Positions 7,818-29,389 are shown, counted from the first letter of the stretch. The stretch: DNA of 64,000 bases from Candidatus Sumerlaea chitinivorans (GCA_003290465.1 CP030759.1:1205144-1269143); one strand, 5' to 3'. The notes: a model not told the origin generated them from the sequence alone. Made by a program: numbers and translations.

Positions 7818-8501
7818 TTAGTACGAGTACGCTTCATCCTCAAACACAAGCTTGCCATTCGCGAAACTAAAAACCATTTCCTTGGCTGACTTGAAAGGTG
7901 AACGATAAAGCCAAGTTTCGCGCCGAATGTTCGGCGCAATCGTTGTCGCAATTACTTCGCTTGGGAGGCCATAAACCAAGATGGTTCGCTCCTGATCTGT
8001 GAGCGGACCTTCGTAAACCATGGTGCGGTCCACAAATTGAAATAGGTGATTCAGCCGATGATAAACCCATTCCACGACCAGTTCGCCGCGAGTGGATTTA
8101 TAGGGTCCTCGGAGGTAGTCCGGCTGTCCCCACTCGCGAAGGATTGCTTTCTGCTCTTCGGATAGGACTTCGTCAGGTTGGCGTTTGAGGCGCTTCCCTC
8201 GCATTACATGTTCCACCCCGTGAACGTTCTCATAGTAAGGATACTTACGAAAATGAAGAACGTTATGGGTGTTTTGGGCTGGATAGCGCTTCGTGAGGAT
8301 GGGGCGGCCATCTTCGGTAAAGTCGTACTTGGGGCGTGGCGGACAGACCTGATTCGGCTGATAGCGACTTGGCTGCTCTCCGGATTTCCCCGTGTTAAAA
8401 AACGGGAACGAGAACAGCGGCTTTTGGGCATAAGTTGGCGAAGCCATCAAGATCGGAATAGCAAGGAAAAGAAGACTCCTACTCAGCCACTTGTTGCGCA
8501 T
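7818..8501 (-). CDS. Hypothetical secreted protein
   Basis: 227 aa; signal peptide MRNKWLSRSLLFLAIPILMASPTYAQ; no recognisable catalytic motif. Confidence 0.5.
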   Translation of the reverse strand: MRNKWLSRSLLFLAIPILMASPTYAQKPLFSFPFFNTGKSGEQPSRYQPNQVCPPRPKYDFTEDGRPILTKRYPAQNTHNVLHFRKYPYYENVHGVEHVMRGKRLKRQPDEVLSEEQKAILREWGQPDYLRGPYKSTRGELVVEWVYHRLNHLFQFVDRTMVYEGPLTDQERTILVYGLPSEVIATTIAPNIRRETWLYRSPFKSAKEMVFSFANGKLVFEDEAYSY

Positions 8502-14391: not shown

Positions 14392-14772
14392 TTATGGAGA
14401 GGGCACAGGAATGATGCGTTTGACTGAGACACGCGGGCGACCCGCGGGGACGTGTGCGGTCACGACCAACGATTGCGTGGTAGCCTCTGCTCCGTCATTA
14501 AGGAGTGAGACCTCCACCACACCGGATTCAAACTCAAATCGGCTGGTCTGTGTCGTCGCGCGATCGCTCGCGTGGGCTTGTACTGCGCACACTGCACCTC
14601 TTGCCAGCCACTCCGCCTGTGCGCGCTCGACGGCGGCCGCAACGCGCTTAACGCTACGTACGTGAGACTCGGCAAGTCCGAACATAAGTATCGTCAGCAC
14701 GGCAAGAGCCCCCACAAGGTAGAGCATCGTCGTGCCGCGCTGCGTTTTCAATTTGACCTCGCTCGACCTCAT
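14392..14772 (-). CDS. Minor pseudopilin-like protein (GspK/J-like?)
   Basis: 126 aa; leader MRSSEVKLKTQRG followed by hydrophobic helix TTMLYLVGALAVLTILMFGLA; Tyr instead of Glu at +5; last gene of the pilin-like trio. Confidence 0.45.
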   Translation of the reverse strand: MRSSEVKLKTQRGTTMLYLVGALAVLTILMFGLAESHVRSVKRVAAAVERAQAEWLARGAVCAVQAHASDRATTQTSRFEFESGVVEVSLLNDGAEATTQSLVVTAHVPAGRPRVSVKRIIPVPSP

Positions 14773-15338
14773 CAGCGCTTCTCCTCCTTTCCTGCCCCAG
14801 TCAACGTCGCGGCCAAGGGGTCAGGCACTGCGTAAACTGTCAGCTGCTGGGTACTATGAAAAGCGTCGAACCCATCGCGAGTGGCTATTTCTAATACGAA
14901 TGCGCCCTCGCGCGTTTGAGACACCGAGACCGTTGTGAGATCCGATGCTAACCGCTGCTTGGCGATCGGGCGTCTGTCCGCTCCGTAACGCGTGCGTATT
15001 ACGCCGAACGTCCCCTCAGGGTTTTGCGTGATCTGGTACTCACATCTTGGAGCAACGGGATCCGCCTGCTCGAGCACCAACAGACGTTTTTCAGTAGCGG
15101 ACGTTTCCTGAAGGTGCCCTCGAATGGTCTTGTGGATGTCCGTACGCCATGCCTGCTCTAAGGTCACAAGTTCTTCCAAACGGAGTTGCTGGGCAGTCAC
15201 CCCCCGCTCGAGGCGGATCGTCATGATAAACACGGAGAAGACGCTGCCCATGAGAATTGCCATGGCAGCGATGACAATGAGCATCTCTATAAGCGTCACG
15301 GCCCGGTCAAATCGTTGCTTCAGCCAGTTCTTATTCAT
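14772..15338 (-). CDS. Prepilin-type N-terminal cleavage/methylation-domain protein (pseudopilin)
   Basis: 188 aa; basic leader MNKNWLKQRFDRA followed by VTLIEMLIVIAAMAILMG (class III signal with Glu at +5), but Ala rather than Gly at -1. Confidence 0.65.
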   Translation of the reverse strand: MNKNWLKQRFDRAVTLIEMLIVIAAMAILMGSVFSVFIMTIRLERGVTAQQLRLEELVTLEQAWRTDIHKTIRGHLQETSATEKRLLVLEQADPVAPRCEYQITQNPEGTFGVIRTRYGADRRPIAKQRLASDLTTVSVSQTREGAFVLEIATRDGFDAFHSTQQLTVYAVPDPLAATLTGAGKEEKR

Positions 15339-15799
15339 GGCTGCCTCCCTTGGTGTAGGCGTGTTGTCATGGTTACGCGCAAAGGACGATGCGGGAACGC
15401 CCCAAACATGCAGGATGCAGTTGCCGAAAGCTCCAGCATTCCGTGCTCGCGTCGTCGCACCCGCAACACGGTCTGTTCATTCGGGGCAAGGTCGGCTGCG
15501 GTCGGATTCGCAAAGGGATGTTCCCCTTCGGTGAGGGTTGCCAGACGCTCCGGCGACGCGACTTTCCACCATTCAAGTTCGTTCTGAGCCAACACACTGA
15601 GCCTTAGGCGTTCTTGGCTCACCCGAGTCCCCATCAGTGCCCGCTCACCGATTGTTAGGAATGCCAGAAATCCGGCGCTGACAATCGCAGCGACGACAAT
15701 CAGTTCAAGCAAGGTTATGGCGCGCGAGCGGTGCAGTGTCAGTTTGAGAAAGATTCGACGTCTGCGTTCCATATCGGCGGTCCTCCTTCTCACAGCCAC
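15335..15799 (-). CDS. Prepilin-type N-terminal cleavage/methylation-domain protein (pseudopilin)
   Basis: 154 aa; leader ...LHRSRA followed by ITLLELIVVAAIVSAGFLAFL (Glu at +5, Ala at -1). Track start is GTG; an in-frame ATG (MERRRR...) lies at 15772. Confidence 0.65.
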   Translation of the reverse strand: MAVRRRTADMERRRRIFLKLTLHRSRAITLLELIVVAAIVSAGFLAFLTIGERALMGTRVSQERLRLSVLAQNELEWWKVASPERLATLTEGEHPFANPTAADLAPNEQTVLRVRRREHGMLELSATASCMFGAFPHRPLRVTMTTRLHQGRQP

Positions 15800-16824
15800 T
15801 TATGCAACGTTTGGAAATGAGCAAAAATGCTTGCGACGTACGAGCCGACCAAGAGCCCGAGAACGCAAATAAGTGCGGGCTCGAGAAGGCGGTAAGCCAC
15901 CTCGAGATTGCCAAAGTCTTCCAGACTGCGTGCCGCAAGCCTACGGAAATACTGCTCCACATTCTCGCGCTCCTCAGCGCGCTCCAAGAGCCAGACTTCG
16001 GATCTGGGGAACCACGAGACCTTTGCGAGTCCTCGAGAAAGTGGCGTTCCGTGCTCGATCGCTTCGCGCAGTTCCTTCACGGTCTCGCCGACCAATGGCA
16101 AATCTGGCGTCTCGAGGATCGTGGCGAGCGCCTCGCGCAGGGGCACGCCCTCACTCAGCATAACATCCAGCATCGCCGAAAGGTGGTAGAGTCGCGCATG
16201 ACGCAATGTACGACCATAGACGGGAAGGCGGAGCAAAAGGCGATCTGCGGTAGCTGACCCTGGCCGAAAAACGCTAACAACGGTTAGCCCAACGCTGGTC
16301 AACCACACGAGCACGATGACCACCGTGAGGCAAAGCAAAGCGAGACGTACTGGCAAGAATCCGTGTAAATACGCCTCTCGCTGCCCTGTTGGGATGAATG
16401 CAAGAGCCACCTCCTGCAGCGGCCCGTACACGAACGCATAAAACACGACCGAGATAGCTGCAAGCAGCGTGAGAACTACCGCTGGGTAGACCAAGGCAGC
16501 CAAGAGAGCGTTCTGCAAACGACGCCGCATTTGAAGATACTCAAGGTATTTACTTAGGGCCTGTGGGAGCCGCCCACTGACTTCGCCAGCTCGAGTGATC
16601 GCGAGAAGGACAGGAGGTAATCGGTCGGCAACTCGTGCCAGCGCTTCGCTCAACGACTGACCAGCTTGGAGACCATTACTTACCACGTCCAGCCTCTTAC
16701 CAAGCGGACTCTGGCCAAGGCGCTCTTTCGCGCATCTCAGTGCGTCCGTCAGATCGACTCCCACTGCCCCAGCTCCAGCCAGTTCACTGACGAGTAGCTC
16801 AATTTCCTTCCAGCGGTAAGACAT
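15790..16824 (-). CDS. Type II secretion / type IV pilus platform protein, GspF/PilC family (paralog D)
   Basis: 344 aa; two T2SSF-like repeats (LQAGQSLSEALARVADRLPPVLLAITRAGEVSGRLPQAL and LSEGVPLREALATILETPDLPLVGETVKELREAIEHG) separated by TM helices; ATG preceded by GAGGAG. Confidence 0.75.
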   Translation of the reverse strand: MSYRWKEIELLVSELAGAGAVGVDLTDALRCAKERLGQSPLGKRLDVVSNGLQAGQSLSEALARVADRLPPVLLAITRAGEVSGRLPQALSKYLEYLQMRRRLQNALLAALVYPAVVLTLLAAISVVFYAFVYGPLQEVALAFIPTGQREAYLHGFLPVRLALLCLTVVIVLVWLTSVGLTVVSVFRPGSATADRLLLRLPVYGRTLRHARLYHLSAMLDVMLSEGVPLREALATILETPDLPLVGETVKELREAIEHGTPLSRGLAKVSWFPRSEVWLLERAEERENVEQYFRRLAARSLEDFGNLEVAYRLLEPALICVLGLLVGSYVASIFAHFQTLHKWL

Positions 16825-16834
16825 GGTTCACTCC

Positions 16835-18088
16835 TCACGTGTAAGGGATGCAGGTCACAATTTTGAAAATGGCGAGGTAGACAGTGGTCGCGAGTCCAAC
16901 ACCGCTTAAGAGAACAATGCTGTGAGCAGAGATGCCGAGCGTGTGTGCGAGAGCATGCCGTTGCTTTACCCAAATCTCTAACTGGGCCCTTCCTGCGGTG
17001 AGCAGAACATTCGGCATGGAGTCTGAGCTCTGTGCACGAGCAAGCAGATTTGAGAACTCTCTGGAAAGTTGCGGAACAATTGCGAACACTTCCTTCAGCG
17101 GCATACCGGACGCGAGTCGCTTCTCCAACTTAGGCAAAAATGCCCGCAACACAGGATCGCGAGACGCCTGCACAGCAGCCCGCAGGGCCTGCTCTATCGA
17201 CACGCCATACTTTAGGAATGTACCGAGAGTGAGCGAGAAGCGTATGAGCGCCTCTTGCCATGAAAACTCACGCAGCGGGCCGGCAATCGCGCGCACCATG
17301 CGACACGCGAGCGCACTTCGCCGATAAACGAAGTGCAGGACACGAATCGCCACTGCCAAGACGAGAACACCTACCACTACGTAGGACCACACGGCAAGCA
17401 ACCCATAGGAGAACGGCCAAACCTTCGCCGGTGCCACATCGGACTGCAGGAATTCTTGTTCCAAAACGCTGAATCGCAAAAGGATCAGCCAAGAAACGGC
17501 GAGAAGAACGAGACCCTCGGAATATGCAAGTGCTAGGTGGCGATTTGCGCCAAACCTGGACGGACTCGAGAGAGCCGGCTCTGATAACATGCTGAGCGCG
17601 GCACTCAGTGAGTCGCCTTTTTCGGCAGTTGTGATGACTGCAAGATCTGAGCTCGGGAAGATTGCCGGTCGCTTGCTCAGCGCGTTGGACAGAGGCGCTC
17701 CTGTGCGGAGTTCAGCCGCTATCTCGGTGAAAACTTTCTTCATGGCCTGTGGCAGGTCGCTGTTGGCAAACCCCTCGGTGATGCGTGCGGGATCGCCCCC
17801 AAGCTCGATGCCATCGCGCAAGTAGCAATAATAGGCTCTTCGTAGCACCGCCACGCGATACCGCGCATAGCGCGACTGTGCGAACAGGTGAATGTACATC
17901 ACCCAAACAGTAAGCAGAAGCAGCGCTAAGCCAAAGCGCACCATCTGATCCGCAGTACTCCTTGGCACACCCTCAACCTCTGTCGCTGCAGCAAGCACTT
18001 CTCTCCAAATGAAAACCGAACCGAGCGCGAGGGGCACAAACAGTATTGCCAGAACGATCGAGGATTTCGCCTTCAACAACATGGCCAT
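16835..18088 (-). CDS. Type II secretion / type IV pilus platform protein, GspF/PilC family (paralog C)
   Basis: ORF 16835..18313; start re-assigned to ATG at 18088 (MAMLLKAKSSIVLAILFVPLALG). Two T2SSF-like repeats (...LAVITTAEKGDSLSAALSMLSE; ...RAAVQASRDPVLRAFLPKLEKRLASGMPLKEVF) plus TM helices. Confidence 0.7.
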   Translation of the reverse strand: MAMLLKAKSSIVLAILFVPLALGSVFIWREVLAAATEVEGVPRSTADQMVRFGLALLLLTVWVMYIHLFAQSRYARYRVAVLRRAYYCYLRDGIELGGDPARITEGFANSDLPQAMKKVFTEIAAELRTGAPLSNALSKRPAIFPSSDLAVITTAEKGDSLSAALSMLSEPALSSPSRFGANRHLALAYSEGLVLLAVSWLILLRFSVLEQEFLQSDVAPAKVWPFSYGLLAVWSYVVVGVLVLAVAIRVLHFVYRRSALACRMVRAIAGPLREFSWQEALIRFSLTLGTFLKYGVSIEQALRAAVQASRDPVLRAFLPKLEKRLASGMPLKEVFAIVPQLSREFSNLLARAQSSDSMPNVLLTAGRAQLEIWVKQRHALAHTLGISAHSIVLLSGVGLATTVYLAIFKIVTCIPYT

Positions 18089-18131
18089 CGCCTCGCGTGG
18101 AAAATTAGCTGGCCAGCCTGCGCCCCCATCC

Positions 18132-19397
18132 TCACGCCTCCCCCACGATGCGTCGGGCTTCAGCAAGTGTGATAAGGCCAGCAGCAACACACTGAAGAGC
18201 TGCCTTCCAAAGTGAGGTGGTCCCGCTTGCGAGCACCAGTTGGCGCAGCTCTGCTGTTGGGGCTTTGCGTACAATTGCCTCGCGAAGTGGATCGTCGGGC
18301 ACGGAAACCTCAAAGCCAGCTCGACGCCCGCGATATCCCGTTTCCGAGCACGCTGGGCATCCCCCTACCTCGTACAAATGGTCTGGAATAGGAAGCCCTT
18401 CCCCCGCCCATAAGTTTTCCGTACCCGTTGCCGAAATCGGGCGCTTACATTGCGCGCACAGCTGTCGAGCGAGCCGCTGGGCAACGACCCCAGAAATGGC
18501 GCCCGCCAGAAGAAATGGCTCAATCCCCATGTGCAAGAGACGGGCGTAAACCTGCGCTGTCGTGCCACTGTGAATCGTCGAAAGCACCAAATGACCGCTG
18601 AGGCCTGCTTGCATGACGGTGGCGGCTGTTTCCTCGTCGCGTATTTCCCCAACGACAATCACGTCTGGGTCCATTCGCAGAAGAGTGCGAAGACCCGTGA
18701 GAAAGGTGAGCCCGCCCGTCGGATCGATCTGTGTCTGATTGACCCCATCTATCTCCTGCTCGATGGGATCCTCAAGAGTCGCGATATTCGGGATAAGGGG
18801 AGAACGATCGAGGAGAAAGCGCAGGGCTGCGTAGATCGAGGTGCTCTTGCCGCTGCTACAAGGGCCGGTAAATAGTATGACACCGTGCGACCGAAGAAGG
18901 GCTCGCTGAAGCCGCCCCAAATCAGTCGCAGACAGGCCCAACTCTTCAAGTCGGCGAGGAGCGATCTGGGTAGGGAGCCGCAGGACAGCCTTCTCGCCGT
19001 GGAGGGTTGGCATGAACGCGGCCCGAAGCGCCAAGCCATCATCGTTTCCGAGCCGACCGTCCTGCGGCAAACGCTTTCGATACGTAAGAACCTTCGCAAG
19101 CATTTTCAGGCGCGCTATGACGTTTTCGCCGCGCTTGCGCGACAATCTTGCGACAGGGATCAGTTGACCATCCACCCGGTAGCGGACGAGGTAATGATCT
19201 GGTCTTGCTTCCAAATGAATGTCACTTGCGCGCAACTCCTGAGCGGCGTTCAAGATCCTGTCCGTCAATTCGGGGACGGCCATTTCGTCTAAGGCCCCCA
19301 ACTGTTCGATTTCTTGCTTCAGGAAAGCAAGAACCGTTGGCGGCTCATGCTGGTCCGCTTCTGCTGCCACTCTGTTTTCCTTCGTGATTTCCGTCAT
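18132..19397 (-). CDS. GspE/PilB-family secretion ATPase (short form)
   Basis: Walker A FTGPCSSGKSTSIYA, Walker B-like DPDVIVVGEIRD, His-box HLVLSTIHSGTTA, C-terminal tetracysteine CAQC...CPAC. Track ORF starts at TTG 19538; ATG at 19397 (MTEITKENR) has an AAGGA RBS, giving about 421 aa. Confidence 0.8.
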   Translation of the reverse strand: MTEITKENRVAAEADQHEPPTVLAFLKQEIEQLGALDEMAVPELTDRILNAAQELRASDIHLEARPDHYLVRYRVDGQLIPVARLSRKRGENVIARLKMLAKVLTYRKRLPQDGRLGNDDGLALRAAFMPTLHGEKAVLRLPTQIAPRRLEELGLSATDLGRLQRALLRSHGVILFTGPCSSGKSTSIYAALRFLLDRSPLIPNIATLEDPIEQEIDGVNQTQIDPTGGLTFLTGLRTLLRMDPDVIVVGEIRDEETAATVMQAGLSGHLVLSTIHSGTTAQVYARLLHMGIEPFLLAGAISGVVAQRLARQLCAQCKRPISATGTENLWAGEGLPIPDHLYEVGGCPACSETGYRGRRAGFEVSVPDDPLREAIVRKAPTAELRQLVLASGTTSLWKAALQCVAAGLITLAEARRIVGEA

Positions 19398-19557
19398 ATC
19401 TTTAAGGTCCTTCGCCTGAGTGTTAGACGTCCAAGCCATGCGATTCGTTGACACTTGCCTCGCAATTGCTCTATCCCGCTCCAAATCCCCGTTCCTTGCT
19501 GCCGCTCCTCGCACACCTTGACTTCGCAAAGTTGGCAAATCGGTGGAGAATCCTGGT

Positions 19558-20610
19558 TTACCGCATCCCGAAGATCCAAAACATGAGCAACGGCCAGACG
19601 GTGAGGACGTATATGCCCATGAGTAAGCCGAGGAACGCCATCATCATGGGTTCGATTGCGCGAAGGGAGCGCCCAAATTCGTCAAGTTCATCAAGCGTGC
19701 GCTGGGCAAGGTCCTGAAAGTATTCGGTGACTGTGTCCTGAAGAAAGGCTTGTTCCATTAACCAGCACTCGTGGGAGGGGAACCATTCTTCTTTTCCAAG
19801 CGCCTCTGTGGGCGAAGCCCCACGAGCGAGCGTGTCACGTAGTTTTTTGCACACTCCTGCCAAAAGTGGTTCTTCACGCATTTGGGCAATTGCCTCGAGT
19901 CCGTCCCGCAAGCAAGCTGCTCCTCCCGAAACGAAGGTCCCCATTAGGGTAGCAAAATGGTACAAATTTGCGCGTGCGACCACGACGCCAAAGAATGGTA
20001 GGGTCGTAAGAAAACGTTCGAAGCGGGCTCTCCGCGGAGCAGAGAGGATAAGAGCAGACACTGCAAAAGTACTGAGGGCCAACACTACCAACGTACACAG
20101 GACTGCCCACCGCAAAAGGCGTACGGGTAACAAAAACTCAGTGCTCTGGGATTCAAATCCGCGGCTCATGGCTGCAAATTCCAACAATGCATACGGTTCA
20201 TTCGAAAGCGACGCGAGATACGACTCACAAACAATCATCAGAATGGCCGCGATCACCAAAACCACCACGGGATAGGTAATTGTGCGCAGGTAGGCACTCT
20301 GAATACGCCGGCGGGCTTCGACGTACGCGACAATCCGCCGAAACCACACATCCAGCTCGCCTGAGGTCTCGCCCGCAGCGATCAAGCTAATGATCGGACG
20401 AGGCAGCGGGCAGCGGGCCTTGGTCAAGGCTTCGCTCAAGCTGAGGCCTAATCGAAGGAATTCCTCTGTCACCTCAAGTGCTTGAGCAAATCTACGATTC
20501 TTCACTCCCCTACGGATAGCCGGGAGCACATCTACCGGAGCCAGTCCGACCGAAAGTCCGGCACTAAGTTCCCGTACAAAGAGCTCCAAATCTCGCCATG
20601 AGGTTCGCAT
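19558..20610 (-). CDS. Type II secretion / type IV pilus platform protein, GspF/PilC family (paralog B)
   Basis: 350 aa; two T2SSF-like repeats (RFAQALEVTEEFLRLGLSLSEALTKA...IISLIAAGETSGELDVWF; LMGTFVSGGAACLRDGLEAIAQ...LMEQAFLQDTVTEYFQDLAQ), three predicted TM segments; ATG preceded by AGGAGGG. Confidence 0.75.
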   Translation of the reverse strand: MRTSWRDLELFVRELSAGLSVGLAPVDVLPAIRRGVKNRRFAQALEVTEEFLRLGLSLSEALTKARCPLPRPIISLIAAGETSGELDVWFRRIVAYVEARRRIQSAYLRTITYPVVVLVIAAILMIVCESYLASLSNEPYALLEFAAMSRGFESQSTEFLLPVRLLRWAVLCTLVVLALSTFAVSALILSAPRRARFERFLTTLPFFGVVVARANLYHFATLMGTFVSGGAACLRDGLEAIAQMREEPLLAGVCKKLRDTLARGASPTEALGKEEWFPSHECWLMEQAFLQDTVTEYFQDLAQRTLDELDEFGRSLRAIEPMMMAFLGLLMGIYVLTVWPLLMFWIFGMR

Positions 20611-20620
20611 CGGTTCCCTC

Positions 20621-21844
20621 CTACTCGAATGGCACGATAGTTACGACAGAGAAGAGGCTGAGATAGATGGCTGACACCAAAATGATGCCAAAAGCTAAGA
20701 CGGCGAGATGCACAATCGCTGCAATAAGCTGCATCATTAGAGCCCGTTGAAGTTTCCACTTTTGCTGAAGCTCGTAGGCACCTGCGCAAAGGACCTCAGG
20801 CGCGGTTTCCGACACGCTAGCCCGCATAAGCACCTGATGAAACACCGTGGGAAGAGACGGAATCCCAGCGAAGAGATTCGGCAACGAAGCACCGGCCCTG
20901 ATTCGTTCCCGTAGGAGCGGAAGGCATCGCTGCAGAACCGGGTCCCCCGTGGCTCGTACTGCCGAGTCAAATGCAGACAAGGGATCTACGTTCCATTTCA
21001 GAAGCATTCCAAGCGTGTGTGCAAAGCGGGCCAACTTTCGAAGCCAAAGAAGTTCGGCCAGCCGTTCACTTCTGTTTGCAAGAAGGCGCCGAACCCAGAG
21101 GCTTCGTCGTTCGAGAACACGAATTCCCCACAGAAGAACAAGCAACAATACCAGACCCTGCCATAAAGGAACCGAGTATCGAACGACCTGCTGCGTGAAA
21201 ACGGGTGGTTGCTTGTGGAGATCCGCGTAGAGTTCCGCAATCCTCGGCAAGGTTTGAATGGCGAATAGGCCAAGGATAAAAGAGAATACGATGAGCTCTC
21301 CAACGATGATCCCAACCCACACCTTGCGGCTAAAACCATGCTCGCGATCCACTAACTCCTCACTTGCGAGAAACCGCAAAGCCTCGGGAAGGCTGTCCGA
21401 ATCCTCTGCAGCGGAAATGACTGCAAGGTGCGCACCGGGGACGGGCGCGCGTCGGAACAAGGTGGGTTTTAACGTCTCCGCCAGCGAAGCACCAACCTCC
21501 AATCGCTTCGATGCCCGTAGCAACAGGCGCCGCACGCGCCATGGCATCTTGATGGAGCTTGAGGCAAAGGCACGGGTAGCGTCGGCAAGTCTGCCGCGTA
21601 CCAAGCACGCTGTCCCGAGGTAACGGTAAAACTGATACCTCCAGCCATAGGGCGCCCCTGCGGTAGATCTCCCTAAGAGCAAGGCAAAAGCGTAAACAGT
21701 AAGTAAAATCCCACCTAAGAACAAGATTGAGTCATGAAACACACGAAAGAGGTTCCGGTCCGCCTGTTCCACCCACGCGATGAGCATGACGTAGAGATAA
21801 GCGGGTAAGAGAACCCAGAACAGATATCGTGGCACTCGACTCAT
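20621..21844 (-). CDS. Type II secretion / type IV pilus platform protein, GspF/PilC family (paralog A)
   Basis: 407 aa; N-terminal TM helices then two T2SSF-like repeats (LEVGASLAETLKP...HLAVISAAEDSDSLPEALRFLA; FDSAVRATGDPVLQRCLPLLRERIRAGASLPNLF...LMRASVSETAPEVL); ATG preceded by AAAGGGGA. First gene of the cluster. Confidence 0.7.
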   Translation of the reverse strand: MSRVPRYLFWVLLPAYLYVMLIAWVEQADRNLFRVFHDSILFLGGILLTVYAFALLLGRSTAGAPYGWRYQFYRYLGTACLVRGRLADATRAFASSSIKMPWRVRRLLLRASKRLEVGASLAETLKPTLFRRAPVPGAHLAVISAAEDSDSLPEALRFLASEELVDREHGFSRKVWVGIIVGELIVFSFILGLFAIQTLPRIAELYADLHKQPPVFTQQVVRYSVPLWQGLVLLLVLLWGIRVLERRSLWVRRLLANRSERLAELLWLRKLARFAHTLGMLLKWNVDPLSAFDSAVRATGDPVLQRCLPLLRERIRAGASLPNLFAGIPSLPTVFHQVLMRASVSETAPEVLCAGAYELQQKWKLQRALMMQLIAAIVHLAVLAFGIILVSAIYLSLFSVVTIVPFE

Positions 21845-22088
21845 TCTAACTGTCCCCTTTCAGTAGCCCACTGCGTTGGTAGCGTGGTGAAAGCCTAATC
21901 ACGCCTAGGAAGAGCAACCTCTGCTGAACCTGCGCAAAGGGGTGTCCCGCTCGCTTCCCCCCGTGCCGTCGTTCCCGTAATCATTGTTCACCAGCCGTCC
22001 GGTCCATCCCGCTTAAACGCTCCTTTGTCGTCACCATGTTAGACGGAGAGGCTCGGGTGAGTGGTTGACACGGTTTCCAGAATTTTTT

Positions 22089-22967
22089 CTAATCGCATGG
22101 GACAGGAGTAGATTCCCCGCGCGTCCCCTCGAGTGTGGCCACGGCAGCGGAGCCAAGGATCATCGCCGCGCCGATCCAGAAGCGCATCGGCATTGTGTCC
22201 CCCAGGAATAGAGTTCCAAACATGGCGCTCCAAACCACCACAGTAAGCGAGAGCAATCCGCCTTGCGCCGCCGTCAAAACCCGGTAGGCATTCGTCATCA
22301 GGAGCTGAGCGACCGTTGCAAATGCCACCATGCCGACCACAAGCAGCCATTCCCGAGCGTGCGGAACCACAAAGTGCAATGCGGTGGGAAAAGCCGTCAC
22401 AATGGTCCCTACGAGGGTAAAGAAAATCACAATCCAGCCACTCGACTCGGTTCCGCGAAGGAGCCGCACGCTGACGATCGCTGATCCGGTCAGAGCCCCC
22501 GCCGCAAGTCCGACGAGGTCCCCAAAGCTAAACGCAAAGTGTCCAGTTGAGAAATCCAAGGTGAGAAGGGTCCCCACAACCCCGAGTGGAAGCGACCAGA
22601 GGGTAAGCCGATGTGGTTTTTCGCGCAGTTCAAACCACGCAAAGAGGGCCGACCACACGGGATACGTATAGCAGTAGAGCGTTGCCTTCGGTAGCCCAAT
22701 GTGATCGATGGCGTAGAAATAACAAAGCAGCGCGGCGGTACCAGCGACCCCACGCCACAGAAGGCGTCGGTAATTCCCGGGACGTCCAAGGGGGCGACGT
22801 GTGACCACGTAGAGGCACACGACGAGGATGAGACCGAAGAGACTGCGGAAGAAGACTTTCTCTATGCTCGGTAAACGCGGGAGCAGGCGCGTACACAACG
22901 CCATCAAGGCAAAACAGAACGCGGAGGCAAGCATAAGGAGCTGACCGCGGAGAACTCCGTGACGCAT
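22089..22967 (-). CDS. EamA/DMT-family transporter
   Basis: 292 aa, about 10 TM helices, duplicated EamA-like halves (LMLASAFCFALMALCTRL...; ...SAMFGTLFLGDTMPMRFWIGAAMILGSAAVA). Confidence 0.75.
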   Translation of the reverse strand: MRHGVLRGQLLMLASAFCFALMALCTRLLPRLPSIEKVFFRSLFGLILVVCLYVVTRRPLGRPGNYRRLLWRGVAGTAALLCYFYAIDHIGLPKATLYCYTYPVWSALFAWFELREKPHRLTLWSLPLGVVGTLLTLDFSTGHFAFSFGDLVGLAAGALTGSAIVSVRLLRGTESSGWIVIFFTLVGTIVTAFPTALHFVVPHAREWLLVVGMVAFATVAQLLMTNAYRVLTAAQGGLLSLTVVVWSAMFGTLFLGDTMPMRFWIGAAMILGSAAVATLEGTRGESTPVPCD

Positions 22968-22971
22968 CGCT

Positions 22972-24660
22972 TTAGCGTTCCTTTATCGTGTCTGGGAGGG
23001 TGGGCCGAGCCGATGCACGAGGCTTATAGAGGAAAAATTGCCACAGGTGCCCTCCTTGAATCACCCGATCGAGCCGGTATGTGTCGCGTAAAGCTTCCCG
23101 CATTCCGGGCGTGAACGCATCCGTGTAGGCGTCCGAAAACAAGTCCGTCGTGGACGCAAAAATTGTGAAACGCCCGGCCCGAATATCTTTCAGAAACCTT
23201 GATTCGTCCCAACGACCTTGCCGCGCCAATTCACTCATAATAAACGGCTGAAACAGCACAGGCTTTTCTGCGAAGAGCGCATAGGCGGCCACCTCGCTCA
23301 CGACGTCCCCCGAAGCTCGGGCGAGTTCGCTCGTTAAGCGAGCTGCAGCTTCGAAATCCGCGGGTGTCGGCCGCTTCCATTCGCCGAAAATCACCTTTTC
23401 CCAGCGGTGCAGGTGCACTGCGTGAAGTGCGAGGAGAAACGCCATTAGGAGAATCCACGCCTTCCATGAGTCGGACTGCGCGGCGGTGCGTTTCCGTAAT
23501 CCATATCCGATAGCAACCCCAACCGCAAGGCTCCACGCTGCAAGAGGTTCAAGGAGATAATTCTCCGCGCTTCCAGCTTTAGGAAGAGAGAGGAAATTCG
23601 TGACAGACAACATCTGGTAAGCGACGCAAGCGATAAGAAGGAAGCGCGTTCGCAAAAGTTCCTGTTCCGCCCTCGAGGTCACAGCCGTCGAGACAGGATT
23701 AGAAGAGGCCGCCGCGTCCAGTGTGCCATGAATCGTCGCGAGAGGACGCCAGGACCGGACAAGTTCACGCACAAGAAGGGCAAAAGCCAGGAGCCCGGCG
23801 AGCAGCCACCAACGGTAGAAGCGCCACACATGGGCCGCCCACACCAGCAAGTCCGGCCAGTGATAGCGATTCATGTTGTACCAAATTGTGTGAACAGCGA
23901 ATTGCCCACCCGTAAGAGCACTCAGGGCAAGGAACGGCAGGCCTGCCGCAGCTACAAATGTAACCGCGTAACGTCGAAAGGCAGCACGGTCCCACACCCA
24001 CAAAGCAATTAGCGAAACAACGGGCACGGAATACATCGTCTGCTTGGTGAACAAAGCCAGTGCAGCAAGACATGCTGCGCCGATATGCATCCACTTTTTC
24101 TCGGAACCCCCAAGCAGAAGCGCCAAGCTCGACAGCGTCAGCGCTAAGGCGAGCAAATCTACGCGAAAGTAGGCCGACCAGTTGTAGCACTCAAAGGTGG
24201 CTAAGAAAAGAAGCGGAGCAAGCAGAGCAGCAAAGATCTGACGCGTGAGTGCATAGACGATGGTGAACAGTAGAATGCCGGTGGAGAACACCGACAGTGC
24301 AGTGATGAGGCGCCCGACAAAGAAGCTGGGAGTGTGAAGATTCGTCAGGCTTCCTGCCACCCAGAGATAGAAGGGAGGATAGGTCCCAACGAGATAGGGG
24401 TAGTCGTTCAGTTCGCGGTAGAGCGGTTTGCCTTGGGCAACACGTACAGCTTGAGCGAGGAGTGCCCCTTCTTCGTTGTCCAGTTGAAGCATCGGATGAG
24501 CAAGCGCCTCAGTCACACGTACATAAACGTGTGGGATCAGCACCGCCAGCCCCAACACACATAAGACTACGAGCCCCCGAATGAGTATGGCACCGAAGTC
24601 GTCGGGCCATCGGTTTTCCTGCGTTGCTTCCTCCTCAACCTGCACAGGATTGTTCATCAT
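22972..24660 (-). CDS. Polytopic membrane glycosyltransferase (GT39/ArnT/PMT-like fold)
   Basis: ORF 22972..24717; likely start at MMNNPVQ. Multi-TM N-terminal region with Tyr/Trp-rich loops and a C-terminal soluble domain, typical of lipid-linked-sugar-using glycosyltransferases. Family assignment is by pattern only. Confidence 0.5.
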   Translation of the reverse strand: MMNNPVQVEEEATQENRWPDDFGAILIRGLVVLCVLGLAVLIPHVYVRVTEALAHPMLQLDNEEGALLAQAVRVAQGKPLYRELNDYPYLVGTYPPFYLWVAGSLTNLHTPSFFVGRLITALSVFSTGILLFTIVYALTRQIFAALLAPLLFLATFECYNWSAYFRVDLLALALTLSSLALLLGGSEKKWMHIGAACLAALALFTKQTMYSVPVVSLIALWVWDRAAFRRYAVTFVAAAGLPFLALSALTGGQFAVHTIWYNMNRYHWPDLLVWAAHVWRFYRWWLLAGLLAFALLVRELVRSWRPLATIHGTLDAAASSNPVSTAVTSRAEQELLRTRFLLIACVAYQMLSVTNFLSLPKAGSAENYLLEPLAAWSLAVGVAIGYGLRKRTAAQSDSWKAWILLMAFLLALHAVHLHRWEKVIFGEWKRPTPADFEAAARLTSELARASGDVVSEVAAYALFAEKPVLFQPFIMSELARQGRWDESRFLKDIRAGRFTIFASTTDLFSDAYTDAFTPGMREALRDTYRLDRVIQGGHLWQFFLYKPRASARPTLPDTIKER

Positions 24661-25879
24661 CCGCCTCTTGAGGAGCAGAATGAATGGTCTGGGTCGCCGC
24701 AAGCCGGTGGAGGCCACGCAACACCGCGGCGCCTACAACGTCACCGCGTAAAGCTTCCATGCACATGGGCTGCTTGTCGCAGGTCTTTAAATAGCATGGG
24801 CTGCAGCTGAAATCGGTCACAATTTTCTCACCACGATCATAAAGCTCAATTTCAACGGGGGAAGTTGAGCCAAAGATTGCGACGACCCATTTCTGTCGGG
24901 CAATCGCGATATGCATTGCCAGACTGTCGGAGCTCACGACTAAATCACAGGCATCCACCACACCGACGAACTCGTCGAGCGTATTGCCGCAGCCGGTGTC
25001 GAAGAGATAGGGACAGCGCTGAAGGATCTGGGCGTTGAGTTCGCGCTCGGCTTCACCTCCGAGAAGCAGCAACGATACGTGTGGAAGGTGCGCATGCAAG
25101 AACTCGCACAACTCAACCCACCCTGCTAAGGTCCACTGCTTGGTTCGAAAAACTGAGCCGCAACCCGTGTTGATCCCGATGCGCGGTGGCTGGGGTACCC
25201 CGGCGAGAATCTCGGCGCGACGACGCTGACCGTTTTCAGTCAAAAAAAGTTGGTAGGGATCGCGCGCGTATGGCAGGCAGGCCATTTCGGCAATGATTTC
25301 TGGATACGTTTTCCGATTCTTGCGAAATTTCAGCTCGTCGCTCACCCCGAGAAGCAAGGCATATTCCGACTCAGGATTGAATACCGTCGGCGTATTCCAT
25401 TGCGTAGGTGCAAAACCAAGGTGTCTACGGGCAGGAACCTTTCCCGCAAGTGCAAGCGGCTCACTTTCCTTCTCAAAGTTTAAGAGAAGATCAAACGTCT
25501 CGCGCATGAGGGTTTGAACCGTTTCGCCGTCGAGGGCCAACAACCGGTCTATATTCGGGTTTGCCATCAGCAACGGAATGGACGGAGGGGCAGTCACCCA
25601 CGTGATATGGGAGCGGGGATACGCTCGGCGCAACGGAGCCAAAAGGGTTGTCGTGCGGAGCACATCGCCCATGGCACCGGTTTTGATGATCAGGATGCGC
25701 ACCTGTCCGGCCTCACCAAAGGCGCCCGGGGCGGTCACCTTGACTGGACTTGCCGGGTTGCCAACCACCTCGCTCCGCCGCTCGTACCATTGGCAATCTC
25801 GGCATTCATTGCCGTACTTGCACGGCTTGTAGCCGTTGTAGAGAACGCAATCGAATTTGATGTCTCTGAATTCAAGCAT
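24635..25879 (-). CDS. Glycosyltransferase family 9 (ADP-heptose:LPS heptosyltransferase-like) with Cys-rich N-terminal extension
   Basis: 414 aa; GT9 pattern VRILIIKTGAMGDVLRTTTLLAPLRRAYPRSHITWV and C-terminal ...CDLVVSSDSLAMHIAIARQKWVVAIFGSTSP; N-terminal ~40 aa MLEFRDIKFDCVLYNGYKPCKYGNECRDCQWY contains 5 Cys. Confidence 0.75.
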   Translation of the reverse strand: MLEFRDIKFDCVLYNGYKPCKYGNECRDCQWYERRSEVVGNPASPVKVTAPGAFGEAGQVRILIIKTGAMGDVLRTTTLLAPLRRAYPRSHITWVTAPPSIPLLMANPNIDRLLALDGETVQTLMRETFDLLLNFEKESEPLALAGKVPARRHLGFAPTQWNTPTVFNPESEYALLLGVSDELKFRKNRKTYPEIIAEMACLPYARDPYQLFLTENGQRRRAEILAGVPQPPRIGINTGCGSVFRTKQWTLAGWVELCEFLHAHLPHVSLLLLGGEAERELNAQILQRCPYLFDTGCGNTLDEFVGVVDACDLVVSSDSLAMHIAIARQKWVVAIFGSTSPVEIELYDRGEKIVTDFSCSPCYLKTCDKQPMCMEALRGDVVGAAVLRGLHRLAATQTIHSAPQEADDEQSCAG

Positions 25880-26039
25880 CGTTGCTGCGGACTAAACGCA
25901 ACAGTAACAGAATGTTCAATTGCATTTCAGGTGGGGAACGCACAGGACCCAACACCTCAGATTTCGCCTCGAGCGAGCTCTGGCCCCCATCGGGTTGTCA
26001 GAACTTCACACGGTGGGAACGCCATGCCACCGGCTTTCG

Positions 26040-28412
26040 CTATTCTGCAGAGTTTTCCCCCTTGGAGTTCGCAGCGGCAAGGGCTTGGCGAAACTGGATC
26101 TCGTAGAACCGGGCATATCGCCCACCCAATTTCACAAGTTCGTCGTGGGTACCACGTTCTACGATTTTCCCCTGATCAAGCACGAGAATGCTGTCCGCAT
26201 GCAGAATCGTGGAGAGTCGGTGGGCGATGACAAAGACCGTCCGGCCCTTGATGATGCGGCTAAGGGCTTCTTGGATGAGAGCTTCAGTCTCGGAGTCGAG
26301 CTGGCTGGTGGCCTCGTCCAGGATAAGGATTGGGGCGTTCTTCACAAATGCACGGGCAATGGCCAAACGTTGGCGTTCTCCGCCCGAGAGACGGACGCCG
26401 CGCCCACCGACCACTGTGTCGTAGCCGTGGGGCAATCGCATGATAAAATTGTGGGCATTTGCTGCTTTTGCGGCTTCGATGATTCGCTCCCGAGGAATAT
26501 CATCCGGCATACCGTACGCAATGTTACGGGCGATGGTGTCATTGAAGAGAATCACATCCTGAGTTATGATGGCAATCTGGTCGCGCAGAGAACGCAGCCG
26601 AACACTGCGGATATCCACACCATCAAATAGGATCCGTCCCTCGGTGGGGTCGTAAAAGCGCGGCAGTAGATTTACAAGGGTGGTTTTACCCGCCCCCGTT
26701 TCGCCAACAATCGCGGTGACATGGCCGGCGGGGACGGTGAAGTGGACATCCTTCAGCACATGGTGGGACTCCGCAGAATACCGAAACCACACGTGCTCGA
26801 AGGAAATCTCGCGTTGGACAGGTCGCAGTTCGGGAGCACTCGGGTCATCCACAATCTTCGCTTTTGTGTCTAAGACGCGGAATACCCGATCACTCCCAGC
26901 CATGCCACGTTGAATTTTTGCAATGACCCGGCTGCTGCCCTTTAGGGGGCGGAAAACTTGTGTGAGGAACAAAATAAAGAGGACGAAGTCTGAGCCGCTA
27001 AGCTCGCGAGTCTGAAGCACATAGTAGCCACCCGCCAGAATCATGGCAGAGACTGTCACGATGCCCAAGAGAGCGACCAAACCAGTTCCGAGCTCTTCGG
27101 CGATGACTGTTTTTAGAGTGCGACCGAAAACATTCCAGCTTTCACGCTCGTAGCGGTTTGCCTCCTTCGTCTCCATATTGTAAGCCTTCACGACCCGGAT
27201 TCCGCTGAATGTCTCTTCGGCTATTGAGGCAATTTGGGCACGGATCTCTTGGACACGCTTTGAGATTTTACGCACCTTGCGCCCAATTCCATAGAGCAGC
27301 AATCCCAGAATCGGGGCGACGCCAAAACTGAGCAGCGTGAGTGGCGGAGAAATAAAGAGCATTGCGATGATGAGCGTGACAACCGTGAGAGGCGTTTTGA
27401 GAACATTTGAGAAAAGCACTTCAATGGCGCCGCTGATCGCCATGACATCTTGCATGATTGTGGATAGAAGCGTACCGACAGCCCGGCGATTGTAGTACTC
27501 CATGTCCAGCGTCAGCATATGCCTGTAGACATGGTTGCGGAGCCGTAACAAACAGAGGTTTCCCAGATAGGCGCTCAAGTACCCCGCAAAAAAGGCGGCA
27601 GTCACCATGCAGAGCGCAGAGACGACCATGGCCCCCAGAATCAGACCCAGCAAACGGAACTTATTCTCGGAGCTGGTCATGACGTAGTCCTGAAGTCGCT
27701 CAAGATACGGAAGTGTGCGTTTCGTGAACTCGGCTTTGAGGGACGAAATCCATCCCGTGTGGTGCTTTTTCGTGAGCACGGGCACGGGCACATCCTTCAG
27801 CTTAGTGGTGAGGAGTGCAACAGCCGGTGGAGCCCCCTCAGGATAGATTTCGAACCACTCGTGAGGATCGAGCCCATGTAGATTGGTTTCCCCTTGCGGT
27901 AGGATAATGGTGAGCTTGACGCCACGTTGTGCAGAAACCATGCGGCCAAAATAACATTGGGCCCAGCCACTTTCATCAATTCGGTGAACTTGTGATAAAT
28001 CAAGAATGACCCACTTGTGCGGGGGCTTGAGTAACGCTGCTAAAGCGCCGTGGAGTTCCTCCGCCGCACGTGATCCCGCAAGTTCCCCTGCGGCGCGCAA
28101 GGCATACGTTTCCTCCCCAACGGGTTGAGGCGGAGCAAGCTCGAATGATGCTTTTTCAGCGGCCTTGGTGACATCGGTCAGACGGTTCTTGATAAGAAGC
28201 TCAAGTGCGGGACGAGTAAGCGAAAGTGTCGTCACTGTGAACAGGGCCTCAAAGAGCATCGCTAGTACAAGGCCAGCGACGACCCACTTGGTGCCATGCA
28301 AATACGTCACGAGACGCCGGTAAAGGCCTAAATCCGTGTAGCGACGTTTACTCACTCGGCCGACTTCCCACCGACAGCGCTTTCGAGCTTCTGCAAATAA
28401 ATCGCGAGACAA
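26040..28412 (-). CDS. ABC exporter (fused TMD-NBD, MsbA-like) with STAS-like domain inserted after TM1
   Basis: 790 aa; NBD motifs GETGAGKTTL (Walker A), LSGGERQRLAIARAF (signature), ILILDEATSQLD (Walker B), AHRLSTI. Between TM1 (WVVAGLVLAMLFEALFTVTTLSL) and the next TM helix lies ~170 aa including YALRAAGELAGSRAAEELHGALAALLKPPHKWVILDLSQVHRIDESGWAQCYFGRMVSAQRGVKLTIILP, matching the anti-sigma-antagonist (STAS) pattern. Start overlaps the upstream ORF by about 60 bp. Confidence 0.8.
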   Translation of the reverse strand: MSRDLFAEARKRCRWEVGRVSKRRYTDLGLYRRLVTYLHGTKWVVAGLVLAMLFEALFTVTTLSLTRPALELLIKNRLTDVTKAAEKASFELAPPQPVGEETYALRAAGELAGSRAAEELHGALAALLKPPHKWVILDLSQVHRIDESGWAQCYFGRMVSAQRGVKLTIILPQGETNLHGLDPHEWFEIYPEGAPPAVALLTTKLKDVPVPVLTKKHHTGWISSLKAEFTKRTLPYLERLQDYVMTSSENKFRLLGLILGAMVVSALCMVTAAFFAGYLSAYLGNLCLLRLRNHVYRHMLTLDMEYYNRRAVGTLLSTIMQDVMAISGAIEVLFSNVLKTPLTVVTLIIAMLFISPPLTLLSFGVAPILGLLLYGIGRKVRKISKRVQEIRAQIASIAEETFSGIRVVKAYNMETKEANRYERESWNVFGRTLKTVIAEELGTGLVALLGIVTVSAMILAGGYYVLQTRELSGSDFVLFILFLTQVFRPLKGSSRVIAKIQRGMAGSDRVFRVLDTKAKIVDDPSAPELRPVQREISFEHVWFRYSAESHHVLKDVHFTVPAGHVTAIVGETGAGKTTLVNLLPRFYDPTEGRILFDGVDIRSVRLRSLRDQIAIITQDVILFNDTIARNIAYGMPDDIPRERIIEAAKAANAHNFIMRLPHGYDTVVGGRGVRLSGGERQRLAIARAFVKNAPILILDEATSQLDSETEALIQEALSRIIKGRTVFVIAHRLSTILHADSILVLDQGKIVERGTHDELVKLGGRYARFYEIQFRQALAAANSKGENSAE

Positions 28413-29053
28413 GCGATTAGATAAACAATCGTGAAGCCCCCGCTAAACATTTCACGCGCCCAAACACCCCATGGGATCTTGAAAATTGTTTGCGGGCGGT
28501 GCGGATGGACGACACGCAACATCTCCGTGTCCACCATTTCCTCCAAGTCGCTGATGAACTGGAATCCTCGTTTCTCGAGTTGTGGCCGTAGCGTGATATT
28601 GTGAAATGAAGCAAAATCAAACACCATACGGATCGAAATCCGACGTGGCAAGAGCATATCATCCAAAAAATCTTCGCGGACCCAACTCTCCAGCCGGGTC
28701 TTAGGATCCAAAGGCATCGGTGCGTTCGCAACCTCGGAAAGATCGTAGACAAGATGCGGACCGCTTGAAGCAAAAAGCTTGCGAGCTTCGTGCTCCAAAA
28801 CCTCCATCACCGAGGCCGCCATCTCGTCCGGCAGGTTCCACGGAATAAAAGCCAAGACCACTTGGGGATCGACCTGCGCCAAGAGTAATTGCGATTGCTC
28901 AAACGCCTCGAAAGCAAAATCATAGTAGAGAGGGCGCAAGGCCGCCCACCGTTCAATGCCCTCCGTGACCTCGGCAAGCTCCAGATTCTTCTGCGCCACC
29001 AAGTCAGCGCAGCGGTTCAAATCGTAAAGTAATATCGGGTTCGAGTTTTCCAT
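28352..29053 (-). CDS. Hypothetical protein, first gene of the envelope operon
   Basis: ORF 28352..29092; likely start MENSNPILLYD. No recognisable motif. Co-directional with and overlapping the ABC exporter gene. Confidence 0.45.
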   Translation of the reverse strand: MENSNPILLYDLNRCADLVAQKNLELAEVTEGIERWAALRPLYYDFAFEAFEQSQLLLAQVDPQVVLAFIPWNLPDEMAASVMEVLEHEARKLFASSGPHLVYDLSEVANAPMPLDPKTRLESWVREDFLDDMLLPRRISIRMVFDFASFHNITLRPQLEKRGFQFISDLEEMVDTEMLRVVHPHRPQTIFKIPWGVWAREMFSGGFTIVYLIACLAIYLQKLESAVGGKSAE

Positions 29054-29389
29054 CCTGAGCCTTGGTCTTAGCCACTCCGGTTCACAAATCAATGCGAATG
29101 CACTAACGCGCGAATAACAAAAGCATTCGCAATGGGGCAGATTGAACCGCGCGATGACAATGAAAACAGGTGTTTTGCAATTCAGCTACCTGAACTGGAG
29201 ATCAGTTTCGGCAATGCATAGAAAGGCCGATGGATTGGATCGTTACAAACGTACATTCGTTTATCTTGATCGTCGAATCACAGGAACAATGAAGTCGTAA
29301 GTAATGTCAGAATAACCGAGAAGCGCTGGCCGCGCGCTCTCAAGTGAGGGGTGTGATCGCAGTCGAAGTCCACTGTGGAGGTGTGTACG

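Follow-up and report, generated by a model that had tools for sequence, protein, structure and literature searches.

Paired long and short GspF/PilC-type platform genes with a single ATPase gene in a type IV filament locus of Candidatus Sumerlaea chitinivorans

A gene cluster related to the machineries that assemble type IV filaments was analysed within a 64,000-nucleotide stretch of the Candidatus Sumerlaea chitinivorans genome (CP030759.1, 1205144-1269143; the entire 64-kb stretch is referred to as the window, with positions counted from its first nucleotide). A first-pass annotation of this DNA had described eight co-directional minus-strand genes at positions 14392-21844, and the corresponding open reading frames (ORFs) could be located at these places and in the order then given, A-B-E-C-D-p1-p2-p3. 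Here A, B, C and D denote the four platform proteins, E the ATPase and p1 to p3 the small pilin-like proteins, while the platforms are separated into a long class (A and C) and a short class (B and D). The features are as follows:

21845..22088, no strand: gap of 244 nucleotides (nt) between the EamA gene and A, presumed to be the operon regulatory region
20621..21844, minus strand: platform A, long class, 407 amino acids (aa); Pfam T2SSF, two repeats; extra N-terminal transmembrane (TM) helices
19558..20610, minus strand: platform B, short class, 350 aa; Pfam T2SSF, two stretches; GspF/PilC core without the N-domain
18132..19397, minus strand: ATPase E, 421 aa if translation begins with the ATG at 19397; Pfam T2SSE; GspE/PilB type
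16835..18088, minus strand: platform C, long class, 417 aa, paralogue of A; Pfam T2SSF, two stretches
15790..16824, minus strand: platform D, short class, 344 aa, paralogue of B; Pfam T2SSF, two stretches
15335..15772, minus strand: p1, pilin-like, 145 aa; prepilin-type N-terminus
14772..15338, minus strand: p2, pilin-like and weakly GspJ-like, 188 aa; N_methyl above cutoff
14392..14772, minus strand: p3, pilin-like hydrophobic N-terminus, 126 aa; weak GspK/ComGG N-terminal matches

The genes are closely packed, with gaps across the locus spanning 0-160 nt. A and B, and likewise C and D, are separated by 10 nt, with similar ribosome-binding sites at the two junctions, while 17 nt separate D from p1 and the p1/p2 and p2/p3 pairs overlap. 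The A-B pair lies upstream of E at a distance of 118-160 nt. For E, the ATG at 19397 is the likelier start (421 aa), with gene callers also taking 19439 (435 aa) and the stop side lying at 18132, and the mechanical ORF of C extends back to a TTG at 18313, sharing 182 nt with the 3' end of E. Start calls vary among gene callers for A (388/407 aa), B (315/350), E (421/435) and C (415/417). A promoter and terminator scan of the locus yielded nothing above shuffled sequence, and the operon structure is therefore deduced from gene spacing alone. The same eight genes occur in the same order in at least six independent assemblies, including three NCBI genomes, JGI metagenomes and Logan runs, and an assembly artefact could be rejected on the basis of this recurrence. 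The proteins encoded in the matching genomes of S. chitinivorans, a member of the Sumerlaeota (formerly BRC1), are identical or 95% identical (GCA_003696745.1, GCA_017161645.1 (QZM1.53) and GCA_026416205.1). The species is present in samples from hot springs and the subsurface, among them JGI 3300014796 and DRR290133. A protein identical to D in GCA_003696745.1 (P0160) is named 'Candidatus Hydrogenedentota bacterium' by NCBI, while near-identical genomes are assigned to Candidatus Sumerlaea chitinivorans, and this looks like a taxonomic label discrepancy.

All four platform proteins match the Pfam T2SSF family (PF00482) above its gathering cutoff of 25.2 bits, with scores of 51.1 (A), 96.4 (B), 53.5 (C) and 112.1 bits (D) and two matched stretches in each, which bears out the earlier assignment of two T2SSF-like repeats to every platform ORF. 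The two motifs quoted with that assignment are present in D (ITRAGEVSGRLPQAL) and in B (IAAGETSGELDVWF). Against the NCBIfam GspF model, B and D align over positions ~61-391 (61-390 for B) and A and C over positions ~97-395. Three TM segments are predicted in B and D, the N-terminus of which begins where the dispensable PulF N-domain ends. A and C carry two extra N-terminal TM helices, with hydropathy analysis giving five TM segments for A. In a sequence search D matches the PDB entry for PilC (3jc8) at 2e-14, while a fold search with an AlphaFold model of C (pLDDT 76.8, pTM 0.67) returned matches, at target TM-scores of 0.66-0.78, to the PilC model 3jc8 and to cytoplasmic domains from EpsF, OutF, PilC and TcpE. 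Taking together the hidden Markov models, the profile-profile comparison and this fold search, A to D are complete two-repeat proteins of the T2SSF/GspF/PilC type and not split halves. BLAST comparison within the classes showed A and C to share 32% identity (E-value 7e-32) and B and D 31% identity (3e-53), while cross-class BLAST comparisons of long with short proteins are near noise and the profile-profile homology probability is 99%. By sequence comparison the four platforms thereby fall into two classes, and are two copies of a heterotypic pair consisting of one long and one short protein.

The two classes also differ in a signature that has been linked to channel formation. In PulF, Tyr168-Pro in transmembrane segment 1 (TMS1) and Glu370-Pro in TMS3 form the constriction of a proposed trimeric channel, and the Tyr-Pro and Glu-Pro motifs have been reported as conserved in all homologs (PMC10790770). 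Alignment showed both motifs to be retained in 15/15 control platforms and 6/6 short-class proteins; the residues in D are Tyr113-Pro114 and Glu315-Pro316, and B likewise retains Tyr-Pro and Glu-Pro. Among the long-class proteins the Tyr-Pro motif is missing in 11/11 and the Glu-Pro motif in 10/10, and a Glu is located at +4 from the TMS1 Tyr position in 10/11 (hhalign places this Glu at +3). Since both channel motifs are missing, the long class is, as judged from these alignments, not canonical PilC/GspF. The earlier description of complete PilC/GspF-type proteins thus holds for the two-repeat architecture of all four, but not for the channel motifs of A and C. The motif loss in the long class contradicts the universality claimed for these motifs (PMC10790770). 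A and C share a further His at +4 from the TMS3 Glu position, which is found in these two proteins only, the other long-class proteins sharing the Glu but not the His. In A and C, the Glu and His may together represent a polar pair displaced by one turn of the helix.

The ATPase E matches Pfam T2SSE (PF00437) with 325.1 bits (cutoff 24.9), in agreement with the single GspE/PilB-like ATPase of the first-pass annotation. Its NCBIfam scores are highest for GspE (TIGR02533; 371.8 vs cutoff 630.25) and PilB (333.1 vs cutoff 675.65), followed by ComGA (206.5 vs cutoff 300) and the TadA family (39.2 vs cutoff 373), with E-values of 4.7e-111 for GspE vs 4.5e-10 for the TadA family. The best PDB sequence matches are EpsE/GspE, at 2e-84 for N1-truncated EpsE. 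E does not contain an N1E domain, while a Walker A box and a CxxC...CxxC tetracysteine zinc motif are present in the translation.

Each of the three small genes encodes a prepilin-type N-terminus that is conserved in five loci. That of p1 (...SRA/ITLLELIVV) incorporates Glu5 but scores below the Pfam N_methyl cutoff (17.9 vs 21.2 bits), while p2 (...DRA/VTLIEMLIVIA), also with Glu5, exceeds the cutoffs of both Pfam N_methyl (24.6 vs 21.2) and NCBIfam TIGR02532 (21.5 vs 16.3) and further matches GspJ far below its cutoff (E-value 8e-4). The N-terminus of p3 (...QRG/TTMLYLVG) is without Glu5 and resembles those of GspK and ComGG. No Pfam match was obtained for p3, and its NCBIfam matches are weak (GspK N-terminus 2e-4 and ComGG N-terminus 3e-3, with GspK far below cutoff). 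A single-sequence model of p3 shows a long helix and four strands at low confidence (pLDDT 62.6), with no significant fold match. When profiles of p1, p2 and p3 were compared with solved pilins, the N-terminal helix alone was matched (p1 and p2), or nothing. Of the three pilin-like proteins proposed earlier, p2 is thus confirmed by an above-cutoff match and p1 is backed by its conserved motif, with weaker indications for p3. The order of the small genes, with Glu5 in the first two and no Glu5 in the third, is an I/J/K-like pattern, and from their sequences p1 to p3 look like a minimal I/J/K-type priming complex.

No secretin, prepilin peptidase (PilD/GspO), PilM/N/O/P/Q, GspC/L/M, GspG, PilT or second ATPase could be detected in the 64-kb window, and the earlier statement that secretin, PilM/N/O/P and prepilin peptidase genes are not found here stands. 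The sole PilM_2 match in the window is FtsA, which adjoins FtsQ. Published KEGG counts for S. chitinivorans include one pilD, one pilQ, one gspD and 13-15 gspG genes, together with eight pilT, eight pilB and seven pilC genes, while the sister genera have four pilC genes (PMC8092238 Data Set S1e). By the pilD, pilQ, gspD and gspG counts in that table, the missing parts are therefore placed elsewhere in the genome. Four of the seven reported pilC-type genes occur at this locus, and elsewhere in the genome ATPases greatly outnumber platforms. The paper containing this table does not discuss the locus (PMC8092238).

Comparison across the Sumerlaeota showed the paired arrangement to be a feature of the phylum. 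A profile built from A and C was searched exhaustively, using HMMER, against 1.84 billion representative proteins, and only two matches fell under 1e-30, namely the A and C clusters, with proteins of 630-703 aa from other Sumerlaeota following next. Word-indexed homolog searches with A and with the long protein of metagenome contig L017 yielded almost nothing beyond their own clusters. C is the ortholog of these 630-703-aa long platforms. A role for their ~300-aa N-terminal extension as a third platform repeat was rejected, the extension having no T2SSF match and consisting of extra TM helices. The syntenic locus in other Sumerlaeota encodes E, a long platform with ~8 extra TM helices, a short platform, p1, p2 and p3, and shares the flanking genes (MsbA-like ABC, GT9, PMT_2/GT87-like glycosyltransferase and EamA on one side; DHDPS and an epimerase on the other). 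In a closer relative (L010; E 85% identical), A-B is missing and E, C and D come immediately after EamA. Long and short platforms co-occur in every lineage seen, including that of the window, the Sumerlaeota loci L009/L019, L010, L011, L012 and L020, and the contigs L016 and L017. Because the other Sumerlaeota loci are built in this way and do not contain A-B, the conserved Sumerlaeota unit is one ATPase, one long and short pair and three pilin-like genes. Among the loci compared, A-B, and with it the four-platform state, is confined to S. chitinivorans. The set of four platforms recognised in the first-pass annotation is thus real, but its members are not equivalent, being two long and short pairs where the Sumerlaeota norm is two platforms. 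At the level of the phylum the design has two platforms, and the four-platform state is an elaboration of it within one species.

In neighbour-joining (NJ) trees the long and short classes each form a clade with 100% bootstrap support, A grouping with C and its L010 ortholog (96-99%) and B with D (63-78%). A-B is a diverged duplicate of the C-D pair, copied as a unit and moved upstream of E. In the tree the duplication is older than the divergence of the L010 lineage, which means that there was either a subsequent loss in L010 or faster evolution of A. Comparison of the window with QZM1.53, a 95%-identical strain, gave dN/dS values of 0.23 (A), 0.16 (B), 0.10 (E), 0.31 (C) and 0.26 (D), with 0.10-0.15 for flanking housekeeping genes. 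All eight genes are of the same length in the two strains and the platform frames are intact. A to D are under purifying selection.

Directly upstream of the filament locus, at window positions 22089-29092 and in the syntenic parts of L009, L011, L012 and L014, lies a series of co-directional envelope genes. Across Sumerlaeota families these encode an MsbA-like ABC exporter, a GT9 heptosyltransferase, a PMT_2/GT87-like membrane glycosyltransferase of 560-580 aa and an EamA transporter. Elsewhere in the window, there are two conserved ORFs with no Pfam match (4670-6064, minus strand, 464 aa; 7818-8501, minus strand, 227 aa), and a multi-TPR protein of 531 aa and an ECF-type sigma factor are encoded close to them.

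Loci with more than one platform gene are also found beyond the Sumerlaeota. Metagenome contig L017 encodes E, a long platform, a 185-aa ORF, a short platform, p1, p2 and p3. The 185-aa ORF (L017 1868-2425) is hydrophobic, matches no family and is interrupted by an assembly gap, seen as a run of X. A short metagenome contig from another lineage (L016 3-2793; Logan SRR21358610) encodes two adjacent long platforms and the start of a short one, and thus at least three platform genes. Among the Planctomycetota, one metagenome-assembled genome (MAG; locus L085) encodes E with two platforms and pilin-like proteins, while the cultured Anatilimnocola aggregata (CP036274.1 6334670-6341086, corresponding to L093 8898-15314) has three tandem full-length T2SSF genes (354, 345 and 444 aa). 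Next come three small pilin-like genes and one for a DUF1559-type prepilin protein of 336 aa (N_methyl/SBP_bac_10), and no secretion ATPase occurs within 10 kb. The TMS3 Glu is missing in 5/5 Planctomycetota multi-platform proteins, including all three of A. aggregata. The earlier suggestion of a lineage-specific machine thus holds for the four-gene state, which is confined to S. chitinivorans, but has to be qualified for the Planctomycetota, where two- and three-platform loci occur. A genome scan yielded two Sumerlaeota loci and ~70 loci with ordinary platform genes, the latter being used as controls. Since all of these ~70 loci except L085 are single-platform, usually with the platform gene beside a single assembly ATPase, four tandem platforms lie well outside the norm. 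Two short GspF-like matches (P0173 and P0166) were rejected as family members, being located in ordinary single-platform type II secretion system (T2SS) loci with secretins, and the short platform alone is therefore not diagnostic.

The explanation preferred here, with moderate confidence, is that the locus encodes the cytoplasmic-membrane core of a machine for type IV filaments (T4F) that belongs to the GspE/PilB branch, with a heteromeric long and short platform under one ATPase and two versions of that platform in S. chitinivorans. The hexamer of E would drive a platform built of two non-interchangeable full-length paralogue classes, long and short proteins co-assembling into a heteromeric, and hence asymmetric, platform. 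Such a platform may be functionally analogous to TadB/TadC, but with two domains per subunit. The p1 to p3 proteins, as I/J/K-like components, would prime a short filament or pseudopilus, while a major (pseudo)pilin, a prepilin peptidase and a secretin would act in trans, being encoded elsewhere in the genome. Having duplicated the pair, S. chitinivorans would be able to build two platform versions, A+B and C+D, that share E, and each version is plausibly specialised for its own set of pilins from the 13-15 reported GspG-like genes. The heteromer model is proposed because the long and short proteins are strictly co-inherited, duplicated as a unit and complementary in motif content. As output, a T2SS-like pseudopilus appears most likely, with a surface pilus as the alternative; the pseudopilus is favoured in view of the resemblance of the ATPase to GspE, the diderm setting and the chitinolytic way of life.

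Several observations weigh against this heteromeric platform. Current models describe the platform as a homotrimer (PMC10790770; PMC10191384), and a two-component mix does not fit a trimer in any simple way. The trees are simple NJ distance trees, in which the Planctomycetota platforms cluster with neither the long nor the short class, and with the TMS3 Glu missing in all five Planctomycetota proteins, the rule of pairing a canonical with a divergent platform is therefore not general. The p3 protein is weakly supported as a pilin, and no obvious major pilin could be identified in the 64-kb window. Furthermore, every organism carrying the long and short pair is uncultured, and A-B could serve one of the seven other reported PilB-like ATPases. 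A bolder version of the proposal, advanced tentatively and with distinctly less confidence, is that the locus represents an undescribed class of GspE/PilB machine, in which an obligate two-paralogue hetero-oligomer with divided labour occurs in the Sumerlaeota and, in another form, in the Planctomycetota, with S. chitinivorans running two off one motor. In such an obligate hetero-oligomer the short protein would keep the Tyr/Glu constriction, while the long protein would have moved the buried carboxylate and acquired a large extra membrane domain.

Were the accepted homotrimer to apply here (PMC10790770; PMC10191384), each protein or class would form its own homotrimer, and these would dock in turn under E, being swapped for different pilin substrates or with one serving assembly and another disassembly. 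The division between assembly and removal was once proposed for TadB vs TadC (PMC4371748), no retraction ATPase is encoded in the locus, and the many GspG-like pilins reported for the genome would suit exchangeable platforms. Such alternating homotrimers are nevertheless considered unlikely, given that the long and short genes are strictly co-inherited as neighbours across a conserved junction of 10 nt, that the two were duplicated together, and that a trimer of long proteins would be without the constriction motifs reported as essential in PulF. About as improbable is a long class that stands outside the rotating or channel core and has become a platform-derived scaffold, replacing PilM/N/O or GspL/M/C and anchoring E and a short-class trimer through its N-terminal membrane domain. 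The lack of PilMNO or GspLM in the locus or window, the lack in E of N1E, the domain binding GspL, the two extra TM helices of A and C (~8 in other Sumerlaeota long platforms) and the loss of the channel motifs all agree with a scaffold. However, neither the two cytoplasmic T2SSF domains nor the three TM segments of the core have been lost from the long class, and they are modelled with good confidence, its conserved membrane Glu suggests a role inside the membrane core, and Com-type systems work without such a scaffold (PMC10191384).

The position of A-B raises the question of its partner, and the locus might alternatively consist of a complete core (E, C, D and p1 to p3) with an inserted, independent pair that works with a PilB-like ATPase from elsewhere. 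The ancestral order E-long-short-p1-p2-p3 without A-B, the location of A-B 118-160 nt upstream of E, and the published eight pilB-type vs seven pilC-type genes, four of the latter at this locus (PMC8092238), are consistent with an independent pair. A-B is, however, co-directional and tightly packed with the locus, every S. chitinivorans assembly keeps it in this position, the amino-acid divergence being 5-8%, and A and B are closest to C and D rather than to another system, so that an independent pair is given a somewhat lower probability still than either the alternating homotrimers or the scaffold. That A-B, or the long class in general, represents decaying and functionless duplicates is highly improbable. 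A and C are weak on T2SSF (51-54 bits) and have lost conserved motifs, but in the two strains compared the frames are uninterrupted and do not differ in length, with dN/dS values of 0.23 (A) and 0.31 (C), and the long class is conserved with a signature of its own across Sumerlaeota families and beyond, with a confident model for C. Pseudogenisation of A-B is largely refuted by the dN/dS values, and is the only one of the four rival explanations to be refuted.

How the platform couples the ATPase to pilin insertion is understood less well than any other step in the assembly of type IV filaments, and the available platform models (homotrimer, "drill chuck" and ion channel) are largely prediction-based. 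A diverged full-length pair that is always co-inherited, and of which one member keeps the channel residues, provides a natural asymmetric variant against which these models can be tested. With it one could test the stoichiometry of the platform, which residues are truly required and whether the membrane carboxylate tolerates a change of position. If true, an obligate hetero-oligomer would break the three-fold symmetry assumed in rotary and ion-channel models. The locus also adds an unclassified locus type for classification schemes of type IV filaments (the TFF superfamily), and Anatilimnocola aggregata is a cultured planctomycete in which multi-platform loci could be studied experimentally.

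The locus clearly belongs to the T4F/TFF superfamily, since it encodes an ATPase (PF00437), platforms (PF00482) and prepilin-type N-termini (p2 above cutoff), while no prepilin peptidase is found in the window. It fails the membership tests for the T2SS, type IVa pilus (T4aP), Com and Tad systems. The best platform score on GspF (TIGR02120) is 127.9 for D vs a cutoff of 424, the PilC models of the T4aP give at most 92 vs a cutoff of 700, and the Com models at most 77.3 for ComGB vs a cutoff of 240 and an E-value of 0.95 for ComGC, with four platform genes rather than one. The resemblance to the T2SS is found in E, which is best matched by GspE and by EpsE in the PDB, and in the short class, which aligns end to end with the GspF core. 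In contrast to the T2SS, there are no GspC/D/L/M or GspG in the window, no N1E and four platforms instead of one, and the scores lie far below the equivalog cutoffs. The compact operon with an ATPase, a platform and small pilins, in which no PilMNO-type sub-complex is encoded, is reminiscent of Com, as are the weak ComGB and ComGG matches. Com systems, however, have a single ComGB and a clear major pilin, ComGC, whereas here outer-membrane and lipopolysaccharide genes (GT9 and MsbA-like ABC) adjoin the locus.

Relative to the homotrimer model of PulF/GspF/PilC, B and D share the channel residues and the layout of three TM segments and two cytoplasmic domains, while A, C and all other long-class members are without both motifs and have the TMS1 Glu shifted by approximately one helical turn. 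In gene arrangement there is a likeness to the Planctomycetota loci (CP036274.1; MAG JACPTZ010000138.1), which have two or three full-length T2SSF genes in tandem and then three small pilin-like genes, the last of these being without Glu5 and resembling p3 (E-value 3e-4), and where the TMS3 Glu is missing. These loci differ in that their platforms do not cluster with the long or short class, that no ATPase adjoins the Anatilimnocola genes and that they are known from annotation alone. No description of these Planctomycetota multi-platform loci was found in the searchable literature. Likewise, the searchable literature, the coverage of which is incomplete, yielded no account of full-length platform paralogues in tandem for a bacterial system of the GspE/PilB type, and the view in the first-pass annotation that the architecture is not recognisable as a described system is upheld within this scope. 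Two-platform loci are noted in a survey of archaea (bioRxiv 10.64898/2026.04.22.720090). The nearest precedents are the Tad system (TadB/TadC) and the archaeal Epd system (EpdJ/EpdK), in which one ATPase likewise occurs with two adjacent homologous platform genes, both retained. These systems provide precedent that two platform homologs can both be required with one ATPase (PMC4371748; PMC6668835), EpdJ and EpdK both having been reported as essential (PMC4371748). The TadB/TadC and Epd pairs have a single T2SSF domain in each protein, as a result of fission of a two-domain gene (PMC6668835; PMC10191384). In the S. chitinivorans locus, by contrast, the ATPase is of the GspE/PilB and not the TadA type, and each of A to D has two T2SSF repeats, so that the long and short pair arose by duplication rather than by fission.

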